Of a stretch of DNA of 64,000 bases, positions 19,538 through 55,393 are shown in pieces. The first letter of the stretch is position 1, and each line of letters begins with the position of its first letter. The stretch comes from Promethearchaeota archaeon (GTDB lineage Archaea; Asgardarchaeota; Lokiarchaeia; Sigyniarchaeales; SOKP01), in contig JAUVNS010000001.1 in assembly GCA_030599585.1 (NCBI GenBank), positions 64,001 to 128,000 on the forward strand, in the 5' to 3' direction. The position numbers were made by a program, and so were the translations under genes. Under the pieces are notes generated by a model. It did not search any database, was not told the origin of the DNA, and saw only the letters and a list, made by a program, of their open reading frames with translations.

Positions 19538-19739
19538 CTATAAAAATAATGATATGATCAAATAGTTAACCCGTTTTTCTATTTATATTTTTAAGTTTAA
19601 AATCTTTTTCTTAAAAAAAAAAAATTTTAAATTTAAAGGTAAATCTAAGCATAGTAAATTTTCATAGATAAAGCTTATAAAAAAGAATTGCATAATTGTT
19701 ATTTGCACTTTTTTGTATATTATATTCACAGGAATTAAT

Positions 19740-20045
19740 ATGAATATCTTAGAAGAACAATTTCATTTGTTTGAAATAGATGAGGAAAACGAAGATTTTA
19801 TGAAAATTGAAGTTGAAAACGGTCCAATTCAAACTCCTTTAGATACATCATCAATTTTTATAATTGTGGACCCTGTAAATAAAATAGTTTGGATATATCA
19901 CGGAAAGAATGTTAATGTTAGAAAGAAATTTATTGCGGCTCAAAAAGTACCAAATATACGAGACAATTATGGAATAGATTTTAAAATTGTAGCCGTTGAC
20001 GAGGGAAGTGAACCGTCTAAATTTAAGGAAATCGTAGGTCTATAA
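19740..20045 (+). CDS. single-domain gelsolin-like protein (Asgard actin regulator)
   Basis: IFIIVD…VWIYHGKNVNVRKKFIAA…VDEGSEPSKF matches the gelsolin domain pattern; ATG at 19740. Confidence 0.8.
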   Translation: MNILEEQFHLFEIDEENEDFMKIEVENGPIQTPLDTSSIFIIVDPVNKIVWIYHGKNVNVRKKFIAAQKVPNIRDNYGIDFKIVAVDEGSEPSKFKEIVGL

Positions 20046-20182: not shown

Positions 20183-21220
20183 TTATTGCAACAAGTTATA
20201 AAGCGATTTCGCTATAGTATAAAAGGCATATTCAACATTTTCACCAGTTAAAGCGCTGGTTTCAATGTATCCTAAATTAAGGTAACTCGCGAGATCAGAC
20301 CCTTTTTCAGAAGTGCTCTCTGAAGATTGGCCAATATCTTTTTTATTTCCAATAATATAACCTGTTAAAGCCGGTCTATCTGTTAGCTGGTTCTGAATGT
20401 CATAATACCAATTTGAAACGCTTTCTAGCGAGTTTGGCTTTGATAAGTCGAAGATGAGGAATATGCCATCAGATCCTAAATAGAATTGTTGTCTCATAGT
20501 TTCGAATTTTGCTTGTCCTGCTATGTCCCATAGAACCAATTGTATGTAAGACTCTTCTATTTGAAATATCTTATCCGAGACGTGCACCCCAAGTGTTGGA
20601 ATATAATGCCTTCGAAACGCGTTGTTAGTGAATCTTAATATTAACGAGGATTTACCAACAGAGGGATCGCCACAGATAATTATTTTAAATTTATAATTAA
20701 TTAACTTAGCTTCTTTTATTTTCTGATCAGGAAAAGCTTTTGCGTTTTCCTCAGCGATCTCGTTATTTTTAAACTCGGTTAAAAATTGGTCAATAGTGAG
20801 GAAAATTTCATTTAAAATATCTATATAATTCTCTCTTGGAGCTTTTGATTTTTGCAAGTGTGCAACTTTTTCAGCCACTTCTTCAAATGGAGCCTGAAAA
20901 TAATTCAAATATTTATAAAAGATAACATCGTCAGATTCCTTAAACAATAAGGTAATTGCTCCTTGCCCAATTCCGCCTCGTCTGGACTCATCGTTCCATT
21001 TTATATATTTTATTAATCCTTTTAAATTTAAGGAAGGAAATGGAAGAATTACTAACGATTCAGGAATAAGACCATCTTCTCCTGATAGAACTGTAATTGT
21101 CTTAACACTAATATGAATTCTACTCGATTGAGGAACATCTCCTAACCATACAAATGGATTTGGCCCAAGTTCGTCGTCCAATTCTGTGTACAATATTCCC
21201 TTTATTAGTTTAGCTTCCAT
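20183..21220 (-). CDS. uDENN/longin-domain Rab-like small GTPase
   Basis: G1 GDPSVGKS, G2 YIPTLG, G3 WDIAGQ, G4 NKKD, G5 ETSAL; N-terminal LDDELGPNP…PFP…DESRRG domain. Confidence 0.88.
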   Translation of the reverse strand: MEAKLIKGILYTELDDELGPNPFVWLGDVPQSSRIHISVKTITVLSGEDGLIPESLVILPFPSLNLKGLIKYIKWNDESRRGGIGQGAITLLFKESDDVIFYKYLNYFQAPFEEVAEKVAHLQKSKAPRENYIDILNEIFLTIDQFLTEFKNNEIAEENAKAFPDQKIKEAKLINYKFKIIICGDPSVGKSSLILRFTNNAFRRHYIPTLGVHVSDKIFQIEESYIQLVLWDIAGQAKFETMRQQFYLGSDGIFLIFDLSKPNSLESVSNWYYDIQNQLTDRPALTGYIIGNKKDIGQSSESTSEKGSDLASYLNLGYIETSALTGENVEYAFYTIAKSLYNLLQ

Positions 21221-21364: not shown

Positions 21365-21652
21365 TTAATCTTTTATATTTTCTAAGAGTGAGATTATCCG
21401 ATAAATAGTAGTTCGCGAATGAAATGGAATATTTGCATCTTGAGATAAGTCTGTAATCATATACATTACACTACTGGCAAGAACTGCGGGAGAATCATCT
21501 TCACGCTTTAATTCCTCGATTCCTTTGCTCGCAACTCGTTTTATATTTCTTGGAACGCCTCGGTCGTTAATCATTCCATTAAGTAGGTAATCCACTTTTG
21601 AAAATGCATCCAAGATATCTTCAGTAAATTCTGGTCCCCTTGGCATAATCAT
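21365..21652 (-). CDS. UPF0147 family protein
   Basis: INDRGVPRNIKR…DLSQDANIPFHSRTTIYRIISLLE. Confidence 0.88.
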   Translation of the reverse strand: MIMPRGPEFTEDILDAFSKVDYLLNGMINDRGVPRNIKRVASKGIEELKREDDSPAVLASSVMYMITDLSQDANIPFHSRTTIYRIISLLENIKD

Positions 21653-29624: not shown

Positions 29625-31148
29625 TTAAGATATATACCTCAGTAGTAAATCTTGCGTGCGATTAAGAAAATCTTGAAGATGTTGGTTAATGATATCTTTT
29701 TTACTTTCTTCATCAATTAAAAAGAGGACATATAACTCGTAGTTTACGATTTCTACTCGCTTTAACAAGATTATTGAGTTTGAAACTCTAAAGATTGCTT
29801 CTTCTTTCTCAGACAATTTAAATTTGTAAAAAATCTTGAATAATGTAGTAAACTGAGGGGCAACGACTTCAAACACATTTATTAACTCTTCAGAATTTTG
29901 CATATTAGTAATTTTCATTGCTTCTGGGGTGAAGTGCTCTGCTAACACTAAACCATCGCTACTCAAAAGGAGCACTAACGATGAGCCTGTGAGCGAAGTA
30001 AATTCTCGAAGATTTTGTTCGATTAAATTCCTATTTGGGCTCAATTTTGCTATACCAGATGAAAAAGCTCTTAAAATTGAAAAGATTTTAAACATACTCG
30101 TCACATATATTTCAGGACTTCCGATAGAAGATAAATTTGTTAAGTTTTTTTTAAGGTCTTTTATGTTTGATTGCATTTCAATAGAATCGATAATGTCAGG
30201 ATCTCCTTTCGAAAAAATGTAAATTATTGGAGTATTCTGCTCCAAATTTTTCAAAGCAGTTCTAATTTTTTTGAGATATTCAATGCTTTCGCTGAACCTC
30301 TCTTCATCTCGAAGGTCGATAAAATAAAAGAGCAAATCAGCTTCAAATAAGTAAATTTGAGATTTATCGAGATATCCTTCTTGATAGCGTCGTTGTCCCC
30401 CTAAGTCCCACAAAAAGATATTTGTTCCTAAAGCTTCTATTGAGCTTACATCTGCTCCTCTTGTGGGTTTTAATCCAATCAGCTTTGAGAATTTTCTATC
30501 AACAGATAATATAAAGCTGGTTTTTCCGCTATTATCAAGACCAGAGAGAATAATTTTCATTTTTCTCTGTGTTGTTATTGGTGTTGATGGTGTTTGTTCA
30601 ATGTTAATTATTTTTTCTAAGAGCTTTTTAAAATCTCTTGCTACCTGTTCTTGAGGTAATAGTTCTTCAGTGATATGTTTATCAAATTCTGAAAAAAAAT
30701 CAGTAATTACATTTTTTAATCGTTTTATATTATCGTATAAGAAACTCCTTTTTTTTTCATCTATTAATATGCAAAAAGCACTTGCTAGTGGTATTTCTGA
30801 AAATTTAGCATCAATAAAATGAAAGTAACTAAGCGAAGTTAAATGAAAATCAGGAAATGGCATGATACCAAAATGGTGGTATTTCTTCAATGCGTTAAAA
30901 TCTTGTTTAAAAATATTTCCATCCCCAAGTAATAAGGAGATATTTTTAATCGCAATCTGCGTGTAATCTCTTAAGGAAATTCCAAGTTTATTCGCCTCTC
31001 CATTATCTGAATTGGCTTTTTCCCGCAGGTCCTCATCAATAGGCTCTGGAAACATATAAATTGGTTGAGGTCCGAGTTTATCGAATGCAGAGAATAATAT
31101 TCCTTTAATTATAGACGATTCAATTAATTTATCAATTAATTTATCCAT
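29625..31148 (-). CDS. uDENN/longin + Arf/Rag-like GTPase + roadblock fusion
   Basis: FSAFDKLGPQP N-terminal domain; GLDNSGKT, PTRG, WDLGGQ, SKGD, TSMF; C-terminal VLLLSSDGLVLAE roadblock. Confidence 0.85.
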   Translation of the reverse strand: MDKLIDKLIESSIIKGILFSAFDKLGPQPIYMFPEPIDEDLREKANSDNGEANKLGISLRDYTQIAIKNISLLLGDGNIFKQDFNALKKYHHFGIMPFPDFHLTSLSYFHFIDAKFSEIPLASAFCILIDEKKRSFLYDNIKRLKNVITDFFSEFDKHITEELLPQEQVARDFKKLLEKIINIEQTPSTPITTQRKMKIILSGLDNSGKTSFILSVDRKFSKLIGLKPTRGADVSSIEALGTNIFLWDLGGQRRYQEGYLDKSQIYLFEADLLFYFIDLRDEERFSESIEYLKKIRTALKNLEQNTPIIYIFSKGDPDIIDSIEMQSNIKDLKKNLTNLSSIGSPEIYVTSMFKIFSILRAFSSGIAKLSPNRNLIEQNLREFTSLTGSSLVLLLSSDGLVLAEHFTPEAMKITNMQNSEELINVFEVVAPQFTTLFKIFYKFKLSEKEEAIFRVSNSIILLKRVEIVNYELYVLFLIDEESKKDIINQHLQDFLNRTQDLLLRYIS

Positions 31149-37237: not shown

Positions 37238-38650
37238 ATGTCAGAACAGAAAAATAGTATTATTAAATCAATAGTTTTAAGTTTATTTGACGACGATGGA
37301 CCCACCCCTAAGATTTACTGGCCTACAGCAATGGACGAATCGTCACGCTTGCTAATAGCGATGAAAACGATTTCGCTATTAATGGGGGATTCTGTGTATC
37401 AAAATGGAACTTCGTCAGATAGTGTTAATTATTTCGGCATATTACCTTTTCCAGATTTAAAATTGAACGGGTTGACATATTTCTTCTTAATTCTTGATCC
37501 GACGGCCAGAGGCAACGCTAAGGCAGCTACTATTACCGTTCTAATAAATGAAGACGATAGGGTTTTTTTCTACGAAAATATGAAGTATTTAAGAGTCATA
37601 ATAGATAAATCTGCGTCAAGAGTTCAATTAGCTAAAACGATGGAAGAAAACCAAACAATTATGGATGATTTAAAAGAAGAATTATTCAATTTTACTAGCG
37701 AGATAAAGGATCCCTTCCTAAATTTGAGACAAATCAAAATTCTTATGACAGGATTGGATCGAGCGGGAAAAACAAGTTTCTTGCATGCCGTTAAGCAAAG
37801 ATATAGTGAAATTATCAAAACTTTACCAACTAAGGGAGTCGCACGAAGCGAAGAAAAGATATTCGAAGAACAAAATTCTAAGATATCGCTTTGGGATTTA
37901 GGGGGGCAAAAGAAGTACAGAGATAAATTTATTGAACAAAGAAAAGTTTACCTCTACAACGTTGATCTACTTTATTATTTTATAGATATTCAAGATTCAG
38001 AAAGGATTTCGGAAGCAATTGAATTGTTTGAAACCGTCATCAATTCTCTTATCGAATTGGAAGAATTTCCCCCAATTGTTGTATGCCTCAATAAATTTGA
38101 TCCCGATATTAAAAATGCGAAGGAAATTAAAAAAAATATTAAAACTGTAAATGAAAACATTCATTTAATCTCTGAAAGGTTTTTTGTGAAGATTTTCCAG
38201 ACTTCTATCTTTGATCATTGGTCGTTAGTCTCAGCTTATTCCTACGGTTTATCGCAATTAAGCCCTAATAGGGAACTGTTTCAAAATCAATTAAAGCATT
38301 TTGCGAAGAAAATAAATTCCGATGCAATACTATTGCTCAACGAAAATGGAATTATCCTTTCAAATTTCTCTAAGCCTGGCATTTCTGAAAGGGTTTTTGA
38401 AATTTCTGCCCCTCACTTCCAAACATTGTATAAAACATTTAAGGAATTTAAAATACTTAAACAAGATTTTTTAATTTCATCTGGAATAACTTCTGAATCA
38501 AAGAAAATAATATTTAAAAGGATTCCTGTTGAGAAATATAACCTTTACCTACTTTTGTTCTTGGAAAAAGAGCTAAATATTGATAAAATAGATAAAAATT
38601 TACCTAAATTATCTAAAAACTTGAATGATTTAATCCAGACTTACATATAA
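37238..38650 (+). CDS. uDENN/longin + Arf/Rag-like GTPase + roadblock fusion
   Basis: LSLFDDDGPTP…FGILPFPD…LDPTARG; GLDRAGKT, PTKG, WDLGGQ, NKFD, TSIF; AILLLNENGIILS roadblock. Confidence 0.88.
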   Translation: MSEQKNSIIKSIVLSLFDDDGPTPKIYWPTAMDESSRLLIAMKTISLLMGDSVYQNGTSSDSVNYFGILPFPDLKLNGLTYFFLILDPTARGNAKAATITVLINEDDRVFFYENMKYLRVIIDKSASRVQLAKTMEENQTIMDDLKEELFNFTSEIKDPFLNLRQIKILMTGLDRAGKTSFLHAVKQRYSEIIKTLPTKGVARSEEKIFEEQNSKISLWDLGGQKKYRDKFIEQRKVYLYNVDLLYYFIDIQDSERISEAIELFETVINSLIELEEFPPIVVCLNKFDPDIKNAKEIKKNIKTVNENIHLISERFFVKIFQTSIFDHWSLVSAYSYGLSQLSPNRELFQNQLKHFAKKINSDAILLLNENGIILSNFSKPGISERVFEISAPHFQTLYKTFKEFKILKQDFLISSGITSESKKIIFKRIPVEKYNLYLLLFLEKELNIDKIDKNLPKLSKNLNDLIQTYI

Positions 38651-54343: not shown

Positions 54344-55393
54344 ATGAAGAAGCTAATTGATGCTGTAATATATACAGATGTTCACGATGAACTCGGTCCG
54401 AATCCCATTCTTTGGCTACCGCCAAATTTACCTGAATCTGTCAGAATGTTAGTAGGAATTAAAACTGTAACATTACTTACAGGTGACCAAGGGTCTGTAC
54501 CAGATTCGCTATTAATAATCCCTTTTCCTTCACTTAAATTAAAAGGATTAATTAGATATATAGAAAGAGAAGATGAAAGTAAAAGAGGAGGATTCGCAAG
54601 AAGTGCAATAACATTCTTGTTTAAAGAAACAGATGATGTGATTTTCTATAAATATATGGGTTATCTTAAAGCTCCCTTCGATGAAACTTCGAGAAAAATA
54701 ATTGAATTAGAGAACAACCATGCAGAAAGTTCAAAAATCTTTGAAGAGATTAAAATTTTACGAGATAGCGTCAGTGAATTACTAGATGATTTTAGAACTA
54801 AAGAAATAACTTCACCAGCATCAAAAGAATTTCCAGAAAAACGAGTTAAAGATGATAAAGTAGTAGATTATAGACTTAAACTCGTAATAGTTGGAGATCC
54901 TGGAGTAGGTAAGACATCTACCATACTAAGATTTACTGATAACGCGTTCTTAAGAACATATGTTCCAACACTTGGGGTATCCATTACTGAAAAATTATTT
55001 GATACCAAAAGCGGAGTAATAGAAACGATCTTATGGGACATCGCAGGACAAGCAAAATTTGAGACGATGAGAAGACATTTCTACCAAGGCTCTGAGGCGA
55101 TATTACTTATTTTTGATCTAACTAATAGAAATTCCTTTACAAGTATAAAATCGTGGTATCATGACGTTATGAAAAACATGGAGAAACATCACCACAAAAT
55201 GTCGGGTTATATTTTTGGAAATAAAAGTGATTTAATCGAACTACGAAAAGTTAAATTAGTTGAAGCTTTAGCTTTAGCTAAGGAATTGAATTTAAAATAC
55301 ATAGAAATATCTGCCCTAACTGGTAAAAATGTCGAATACGCTTTTTATGATATTGCCAACACAGTCGTAAAAATGCGTTTGAACAAACCTTAA
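54344..55393 (+). CDS. uDENN/longin-domain Rab-like small GTPase (paralogue of 20183-21220)
   Basis: HDELGPNP…PFP…DESKRG; GDPGVGKT, YVPTLG, WDIAGQ, NKSD, EISAL. Confidence 0.88.
   Translation: MKKLIDAVIYTDVHDELGPNPILWLPPNLPESVRMLVGIKTVTLLTGDQGSVPDSLLIIPFPSLKLKGLIRYIEREDESKRGGFARSAITFLFKETDDVIFYKYMGYLKAPFDETSRKIIELENNHAESSKIFEEIKILRDSVSELLDDFRTKEITSPASKEFPEKRVKDDKVVDYRLKLVIVGDPGVGKTSTILRFTDNAFLRTYVPTLGVSITEKLFDTKSGVIETILWDIAGQAKFETMRRHFYQGSEAILLIFDLTNRNSFTSIKSWYHDVMKNMEKHHHKMSGYIFGNKSDLIELRKVKLVEALALAKELNLKYIEISALTGKNVEYAFYDIANTVVKMRLNKP

Follow-up and report, generated by a model that had tools for sequence, protein, structure and literature searches.

Two longin-Rab-like GTPase genes in a Loki-type Asgard genome

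We analyzed a 64,000-nucleotide stretch of a Promethearchaeota archaeon (GenBank assembly GCA_030599585.1, contig JAUVNS010000001.1, positions 64,001 to 128,000 of the forward strand), referred to below as the window, which has a GC content of 32% and lies within a 4.85-Mb Loki-type Asgard metagenome-assembled genome (MAG). Two of its genes, W1 and W2, encode Loki-type Asgard two-domain GTPases in which a longin domain of the GTPase-activating protein (GAP) class stands N-terminal to a Rab-like G domain. The two proteins align along their whole length with 48% identity (E 2e-127). A Ras domain (Pfam PF00071) was recognized at residues 179-341 of W1 (E 2e-43) and residues 179-342 of W2 (E 1e-44), and searches of the N-terminal domains (residues 1-170) with Pfam and NCBIfam returned zero matches. 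An earlier note, made from the DNA letters alone, had described in both open reading frames (ORFs) intact G1-G5 motifs, the lack of a C-terminal Cys prenylation motif, an N-terminal domain, and a DESRRG or DESKRG loop containing R81; translation bore out all of these, with the loops at 20975-20992 (-) and 54572-54589 (+). The features of the two genes are as follows.

20183..21220, (-) strand: W1, longin-Rab-like GTPase gene, 345 amino acids plus stop, Pfam Ras at residues 179-341
20741..21220, (-) strand: W1 longin domain, residues 1-160, from the AlphaFold2 (AF2) model and fold searches
21161..21166, (-) strand: W1 GP motif, G19-P20, where strand 2 begins, from translation, model and alignment
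20975..20992, (-) strand: W1 loop D77-E-S-R-R81-G82 between strands 4 and 5, with R81 as candidate arginine finger
20699..20740, (-) strand: W1 linker, residues 161-174, with F163-P164 ("AFP"), from alignment conservation
20186..20698, (-) strand: W1 Rab-like G domain, residues 175-345, with Q236, from Pfam and PDB searches
54344..55393, (+) strand: W2, paralogous longin-Rab-like GTPase gene, 349 amino acids plus stop
54344..54823, (+) strand: W2 longin domain, with GP at 54395-54400 (residues 18-19) and D-E-S-K-R81-G at 54572-54589
54866..55390, (+) strand: W2 Rab-like G domain, from Pfam and translation

W1 has 278 homologues in Asgard MAGs, and the related loci all come from Promethearchaeota/Asgard MAGs. 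In the linker that joins the two domains, F163, P164 and K169 are invariant (alignment A1) and the FP motif is retained in the Rab-type rows of alignment A4; the predicted local distance difference test score (pLDDT) of this segment is low in the full-length W1 model.

The N-terminal domain is predicted to be a longin of the folliculin/NPRL2/SMCR8 class

The W1 longin domain was modeled alone with AF2 on a 64-row alignment, and the model reached a pLDDT of 93.7 and a predicted template modeling score (pTM) of 0.87. Its topology is b-b-a-b-b-b-a-a, with strands at residues 6-15 and 19-27, a helix at 31-46, strands at 57-61, 66-76 and 84-94, and helices at 95-124 and 129-161. Longins occupied the top ranks in all three fold searches. 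Foldseek against the PDB placed the Lokiarchaeal longin 8yqg first (E 3e-7), followed by GATOR1/SEA chains, SMCR8-C9orf72, DENND10, Lst4 and FLCN-FNIP2. A second search, independent of Foldseek and run on 48,161 representative chains, gave the following order.

Rank 1: 8yqg, Z 19.1
Rank 2: Lst4, Z 13.3
Rank 3: FLCN-FNIP2 complex chain, Z 12.3
Rank 4: C9orf72-SMCR8, Z 12.3
Rank 5: GATOR1, Z 12.2
Rank 6: second FLCN-FNIP2 chain, Z 11.3
Rank 7: SEA complex, Z 11.0
Rank 8: CSW, Z 10.7
Rank 9 onward: TRAPP, SNARE, adaptor and Mon1-Ccz1 longins and roadblocks, Z 9.8 or less

Ranks 1-8 are thus held by GAP-type longins only. The best match, 8yqg, is the dimeric longin domain of a Lokiarchaeota Roadblock-Longin protein and superimposes with a root mean square deviation of 2.1 Å over 144 residues. 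Like W1 it has a GP motif, and it was deposited as a dimer; unlike W1, it lacks the Arg-Gly between strands 4 and 5, and its fusion partner is a roadblock rather than a G domain. One GATOR1 chain is co-linear with the longin model (model residues 4..148 to chain residues 5..144). We take this chain, from its length, to be NPRL2, whose GP near residues 20-21 and finger R78 would fit; this serves as a lead rather than a test.

Searches of PDB sequences with a two-sequence profile and with the homologue L027 alone gave no relevant match. A 23-row profile reached 8yqg (E 4.6e-5), and FLCN, NPRL2 and SMCR8 were not reached by any PDB sequence search. A protein atlas yielded a lead only: its best scores were 0.89 and 0.85, 19% of the members of the second cluster have Pfam NPR2, and the names of the clusters told nothing further. 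A link at the sequence level came from Pfam Folliculin (PF11704), which matched 13 of the 64 aligned homologues. Two homologues passed the curated cut-off of 23.3 bits, P0230 with 24.5 bits and L027 with 25.2 bits, and in both the match begins 12 residues ahead of the Arg and spans the Arg loop. Below the cut-off, the profile also matched residues 79-144 of W3, a Rag-like member of the same subfamily described below (E 0.0046).

Taken together, the model and the fold searches support assignment of the W1 and W2 N-terminal domains to the longins of the folliculin/NPRL2/SMCR8 (GAP) class. The full-length model contains no DENN core, and residues 175-345 form a Ras-family G domain. The "longin/uDENN" label of the earlier note is therefore valid in its first half, the longin fold, and not as a strict uDENN, since a G domain rather than a DENN core follows.

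A GP motif and a loop arginine are conserved in the longin domain

In the W1 model, strand 2 (residues 19-27) begins with G19-P20, and R81-G82 lies in the strand 4-5 loop, between the strands at residues 66-76 and 84-94. The longins of FLCN, NPRL2, SMCR8 and C9orf72 have a GP motif before or at the start of strand 2, beside the finger (PMC12290439), and R147 of SMCR8, the counterpart of FLCN R164, lies in the bL4-bL5 loop (bioRxiv 10.1101/2020.04.16.045708). R81 was matched to SMCR8 R147 and FLCN R164 by topology and co-linear ranges rather than by residue-level superposition.

An exhaustive profile search yielded 169 cluster representatives at ≤50% identity, from which 113 N-terminal domains were aligned. 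G19 is retained in 99 of the 113, P20 in 98, D77 in 82, R81 in 95, G82 in 92 and Y102 in 100. In the 64-row alignment, the only columns at ≥90% are M1, G19, P20, one further Pro, R81, G82 and Y102. The conservation of the motif positions is far beyond chance. GP and Arg are both present in 90/113 domains and both absent in 15/113, with 8/113 discordant. The GP hairpin and the D-x-x-x-R-G loop proposed in the earlier note are thus real and conserved, and in the model and the 113-domain alignment they are placed as in eukaryotic GAP longins. That note had also staked its reading on the conservation of R81, and the conservation found among the 113 homologues does not refute it.

For this arginine we favor a role as a finger in GTP hydrolysis, a reading that we develop below. 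The longin could instead be a non-catalytic platform for dimerization, localization or effector docking, or a GEF-like (guanine nucleotide exchange factor-like) or nucleotide-state sensor, as in TRAPP, Mon1-Ccz1 and Ragulator, with R81-G82 as a structural turn inherited from a common ancestor with the GAP longins. We regard a platform as a possible but rather unlikely role. Most longin/roadblock platforms are GEFs or scaffolds (PMC10933270) and 8yqg, the nearest relative of known structure, is a longin dimer lacking the Arg, but in the fold search GEF-type longins scored Z 9.8 or less against 10.7-19.1 for the GAP type, and the GP motif is described as specific to GAP longins (PMC12290439). 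While the invariance of G82 is compatible with a tight turn, R81 is one of only six residues, besides the start Met, that reach ≥90% across very diverged members, unfused ones included, and a surface-loop Arg is rarely so conserved for structure alone. In favor of a platform, copies lacking GP or Arg persist throughout the genus, so the longin has a function for which the Arg is not needed.

The G domain is Rab-like

Translation gave intact G1-G5 motifs in both proteins: GDPSVGKS or GDPGVGKT, PTLG, WDIAGQ, GNKKD or GNKSD, and (T/I)SAL. The 60 PDB sequence matches listed are Rabs throughout (Rab8A, Rab1, Sec4, Rab14, Rab11, others and one Thorarchaeal Rab), with Rab8A the best for the W1 G domain among the matches listed (E 1.4e-31). 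A structure search with the W1 G domain placed Rab3C and Sec4 on top (Z 22.7-22.9). The RabF1-F5 segments of W1 are LGVHV, QLVLW, KFETMR, FYLGS and LIFDLS; in a comparison by eye, only about one third of their positions are identical to the consensus IGVDF, KLQIW, RFRSIT, YYRGA and LVYDIT. The C-termini (...LYNLLQ in W1 and ...MRLNKP in W2) have no Cys, nor do those of 27 aligned homologues, and a C-terminal Cys was found in none of the other Rab-likes of the genome whose termini were examined, in agreement with Tran et al. (PMC10933270). W1 matched PF04670 (Gtr1/RagA-type) over 76 residues only and below the cut-off (E 0.023), and the protein ends with its G domain, with no C-terminal roadblock; W1 is not of the Rag/Gtr type. 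The "Rab-like GTPase" of the earlier note stands as far as Rab-like goes, by Pfam Ras and the PDB Rab matches, and does not extend to a bona fide Rab; the G domain of W1 and W2 is best named Rab-like.

The catalytic switch II Gln is retained (DIAGQ; Q236 in W1). An MglA-type intrinsic arginine was ruled out in W1 and W2 because Pro, not Arg, precedes the switch I Thr (P208-T209).

Two further observations concern the three longin-fused Rab-likes of the genome, W1, W2 and a third copy introduced below. They have in common a Pro at the Ras Gly12 position (GDP.VGK; W1 residues 184-209 with switch I, ~20594-20671, (-) strand), and a switch I Arg204 (F-x-R-x-Y-[IV]-P-T) is invariant in them and present in none of the free Rab-likes compared. 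The P-loop Pro is not exclusive to the fused proteins, as GDP.VGK also occurs in two single-domain Rab-likes of the genome. The region of the GDP.VGK Pro and Arg204 may be a contact surface for the longin.

One longin subfamily is joined to both Rab-like and Rag-like G domains

The genome has five detectable members of this longin subfamily, a count that leaves its more distant longin families to one side. Each of them has a G domain attached, which is Rab-like in three and Rag-like in two, and four of the five lie within the 64-kb window. The members besides W1 and W2 are the following.

37238..38650, (+) strand: W3, longin, Gtr1/RagA-type G domain (Pfam PF04670) and C-terminal domain
37298-37303 and 37496-37513, (+) strand: W3 motifs, GP and D-P-T-A-R91-G, from translation
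29625..31148, (-) strand: W4, longin (GP, no Arg), Gtr1/RagA-type G domain (Pfam PF04670) and weak roadblock match
G000 contig C34:149001-150053 (= L018:955-2007), (-) strand: third longin-Rab-like paralogue, the C34 copy

W3 and W4 lie 9 to 17 kb off in the same window. They are 33% identical, their C-terminal parts align, and both have the GP motif, whereas only W3 (R91) has the D-x-x-A-R-G loop, an Arg-bearing/Arg-less pattern that resembles SMCR8/C9orf72. Neither GP nor Arg is left in the C34 copy (its loop reads D-S-T-T-E-E-G), whose G domain is intact. Most genomes of the genus have a match that scores like this copy; L038 and L039, the two examined, are without GP. The earlier note mentions neither the Rag-like fusions nor the loss of GP and Arg in some paralogues.

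Elsewhere, the same longin is joined to a winged helix (ArsR/TrmB) in L025 (1477-2238, (+) strand) and P0247, to coiled coils in P0193 and P0230, and to a C-terminal region that is DENN-core-like by eye in L027 (756-2009, (-) strand; 417 amino acids) and P0139. P0140, a 525-residue metagenomic protein, carries a TIR domain at its C-terminus (PF13676, E 7e-19) in addition to the longin, with GP and Arg, and a Rab-like G domain.

At least six other Rab-likes of the genome have N-terminal domains of ~160 amino acids that are, by eye, of the roadblock/MglB type and not this longin. These Rab-likes lie at the following positions on G000 contigs.

C21:162801-166056
C41:35133-36119
C32:44021-45037
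C8:130365-131327
C35:4708-5799

These fusions bear on whether the longin acts on its own G domain or on another. Were it an active GAP for a different GTPase (a free Rab-like, Arf-like or Rag-like protein), with the fused Rab-like domain controlling or localizing the GAP, the protein would be one step of a GTPase cascade. Eukaryotic GAPs are often effectors of another GTPase, and the genome has 69 small-GTPase-like ORFs, most of them single-domain. The longin subfamily, however, is fused to two unrelated G-domain classes and was found in the genome only in fused form; longin and G domain therefore most simply act on each other. Moreover, the fused trio share the G-domain features GDP.VGK and F-x-R204-x-Y, which are rare or absent in the free Rab-likes compared and thus suggest co-adaptation of longin and G domain. 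We consider a cascade distinctly unlikely.

Distribution and gene neighborhood of the Rab-type fusion

Of the genomes sampled from the window's family, 51/51 have the Rab-type fusion, and it was also confirmed in a single genome from a second family of the same class (L041, 355 amino acids). Another class gave one partial match (L042, G207:C61:1-2600), on a short contig in a MAG contaminated to 7%. There the W1-type gene adjoins a phosphoenolpyruvate (PEP) synthase gene, just as W1 itself does, and the contig was probably mis-binned rather than a true occurrence beyond the class. The Rag-type fusion is found in the sister family too, unfused forms occur in several other Asgard families, and one family (f7) had a subfamily match in 0/55 genomes. 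On the tree, the Rab-type longins are found to one side of a branch with good support (SH-like approximate likelihood ratio test, SH-aLRT, 95). The distribution and this branch point to a lineage-specific fusion and not to an ancestral Rab.

The earlier note had seen in W1 and W2 a cis- or dimer-regulated Rab ancestor carrying its own regulator. Read as an evolutionary claim, such a protein would be the source of both the eukaryotic Rabs and the trans-acting DENN/longin regulators. The G domain is indeed closest to Rab8, Rab1 and Sec4 among the matches listed, and the longin is of the FLCN/SMCR8 class. Yet Rab-type fusions are confirmed solely in the window's family and the one further genome of its class, in other families this longin occurs only unfused or in fusions of other kinds, most Rab-likes of the genome are unfused or have roadblock-like N-terminal domains, and the SH-aLRT 95 branch is compatible with a single late fusion. 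An ancestral Rab state is, on these counts, very improbable.

Orthologues of W1 always follow the genes for PEP synthase and UPF0147, and orthologues of W2 lie upstream of a nitroreductase gene. In relatives, W1-like and W2-like genes stand in tandem and in the same direction between UPF0147 and the nitroreductase, as in the following loci.

L008:4001-7558: three copies
L009:4001-7720: two copies
L013:3976-6262: two copies

The copies are 1-4 kb apart in several sampled genomes; in the window, 33 kb separate the pair, which is inverted. An arrangement of the paralogues in tandem and in one direction would permit co-expression and the formation of heterodimers.

Two neighbors of W1 were also noted. 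Directly upstream on the same strand lies the gene for a UPF0147 protein (21365-21652, (-) strand, 95 amino acids, Pfam E 1.3e-23), which is present in 11/15 related loci, that is, in every W1-type locus. Convergent with W1 is an ORF for a single gelsolin-domain protein (19713-20045, (+) strand, 110 amino acids), which has no Pfam match, matches villin (E 5e-7), the Asgard "gelsolin-like domain" protein 7c2f (E 7e-6) and 2DGel3 in the PDB, and is retained beside W1 orthologues in close relatives.

A proposed built-in arginine-finger GAP

These GTPases probably carry their own off-regulator, since the longin has the fold, the GP motif and the conserved Arg of the folliculin/NPRL2/SMCR8 proteins. 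The mechanism that we favor, at somewhat better than even chances, is a built-in arginine-finger GAP in which the longins pair and Arg81 acts on a G domain of the fused type in cis or across the dimer. In outline, the longin domains would pair as in FLCN-FNIP, NPRL2-NPRL3, SMCR8-C9orf72 and the dimeric Lokiarchaeal longin 8yqg; Arg81 would then enter the GTP site of a fused-type G domain, its own or its partner's, as an arginine finger; and the protein would be a self-limiting switch in which hydrolysis depends on dimerization or conformation. The C34 copy, which lacks GP and Arg, and the Arg-less W4 would be non-catalytic partners, like FNIP or NPRL3. A precedent is C9orf72-SMCR8, which stimulates Rab8a and Rab11a in vitro via R147 and requires both longins (Tang et al., bioRxiv 10.1101/2020.04.16.045708).

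Several points weigh against a built-in GAP. For W1 and W2, both GAP activity and dimerization are putative. In 8yqg, the solved structure nearest to the W1 longin, the GP motif is present and the Arg is not. W1 and W2 themselves have no Pfam Folliculin or NPR2 match at E up to 1, so their link to folliculin is transitive, running through the homologues that do match. On the tree, every informative independent pair points toward joint loss of GP and Arg, but such pairs number only about three (3 to 0, p about 0.25), and after correction for relatedness the coupling is not significant and is suggestive only. With a pTM of 0.58 and a low-confidence linker, the full-length model gives no confident docking in cis. 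The role of the D77...R81-G82 hairpin could be structural alone, through a salt bridge between D and R and a turn at the Gly. A further point is the P-loop, which has Pro where Ras has Gly12; Franken et al. in 1993 reportedly found that Pro at this position of Ras blocks stimulation by RasGAP. Gly is likewise missing from this position in the Rab, Arf and Rag proteins that serve arginine-finger GAPs as substrates. Finally, a permanently fused GAP would require extra control, or else the switch would stay off.

Relation to known systems

The systems that W1 and W2 most resemble are FLCN-FNIP (Lst7-Lst4), the NPRL2-NPRL3 pair of GATOR1 and C9orf72-SMCR8, which share the longin fold and are the best eukaryotic structural neighbors. 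As in those complexes, GP stands before strand 2, the strand 4-5 loop contains a conserved Arg, and paralogues with and without the Arg occur together; the likeness to folliculin extends to the two subfamily members that pass the Pfam Folliculin threshold. Unlike the eukaryotic complexes, W1 and W2 have no DENN or other C-terminal module after the longin, their longin is covalently joined to the G domain rather than acting in trans, and both carry the Arg. MglA-MglB is similar in pairing a prokaryotic small GTPase with a dimeric regulator of the roadblock/longin superfamily; MglB (Z about 8), however, provides no arginine, and MglA uses an intrinsic switch I Arg, which W1 and W2 lack.

Fusions of longins with GTPases in Loki-type Asgards have been published (Klinger 2016 via PMC4917890; Liu et al., bioRxiv 10.1101/2020.10.19.343400; Tran et al., PMC10933270), with longins on Arf-like or Rag-like GTPases and roadblocks on Ras-like ones. 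W1 and W2 share with these the single ORF with an N-terminal longin and a small GTPase, and W3 and W4 fit the published longin-Rag-roadblock design. NPRL2-like and FLCN-like Asgard longins have likewise been described (Liu et al., bioRxiv 10.1101/2020.10.19.343400), as have the GP and Arg motifs in Asgard "FLCN/SMCR8-type" longins (PMC12290439, Traffic 2025), which have the same two motifs in the same structural places and, like W1 and W2, come from Asgard archaea. The text of PMC12290439 names no fusion and asks whether ArfR or Rag/Gtr proteins are the partners, whereas in W1 and W2 the partner is fused and Rab-like, and in W3 it is Rag-like. The text of the cited papers, figures and supplements aside, contains no statement of an Arg-bearing GAP-type longin on a Rab-like G domain, and such a protein may already appear in the figures or supplements of Tran et al. 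What appears to be new is the joining of a GP/Arg GAP-type longin to a Rab-like G domain.

A more far-reaching form of the proposal is that W1 and W2 are self-contained GTPase timers, in which an arginine-finger longin fused to its substrate G domain fires only across a longin homo- or heterodimer (W1-W2, or an Arg-bearing with an Arg-less protein). The fusions to Rab-like and to Rag-like G domains would then be the record of a pre-eukaryotic longin-GAP/GTPase partnership, from which the trans-acting FLCN, GATOR1 and C9orf72 complexes would have arisen by splitting. We put this forward tentatively and hold it to be rather doubtful.

Should the Arg be structural only, W1 and W2 would be further members of the known Asgard longin-GTPase fusions. 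The fusion of one longin class to both Rab-like and Rag-like G domains in a single genome would answer the partner question of PMC12290439, and the natural Arg-bearing/Arg-less pairs mirror FLCN/FNIP, NPRL2/NPRL3 and SMCR8/C9orf72. W1 offers a one-polypeptide, bacterially expressible test system, with R81A, GP and Q236L mutants and a deletion of the N-terminal domain, and a system of this type could test whether longin-type GAP chemistry predates eukaryotes.

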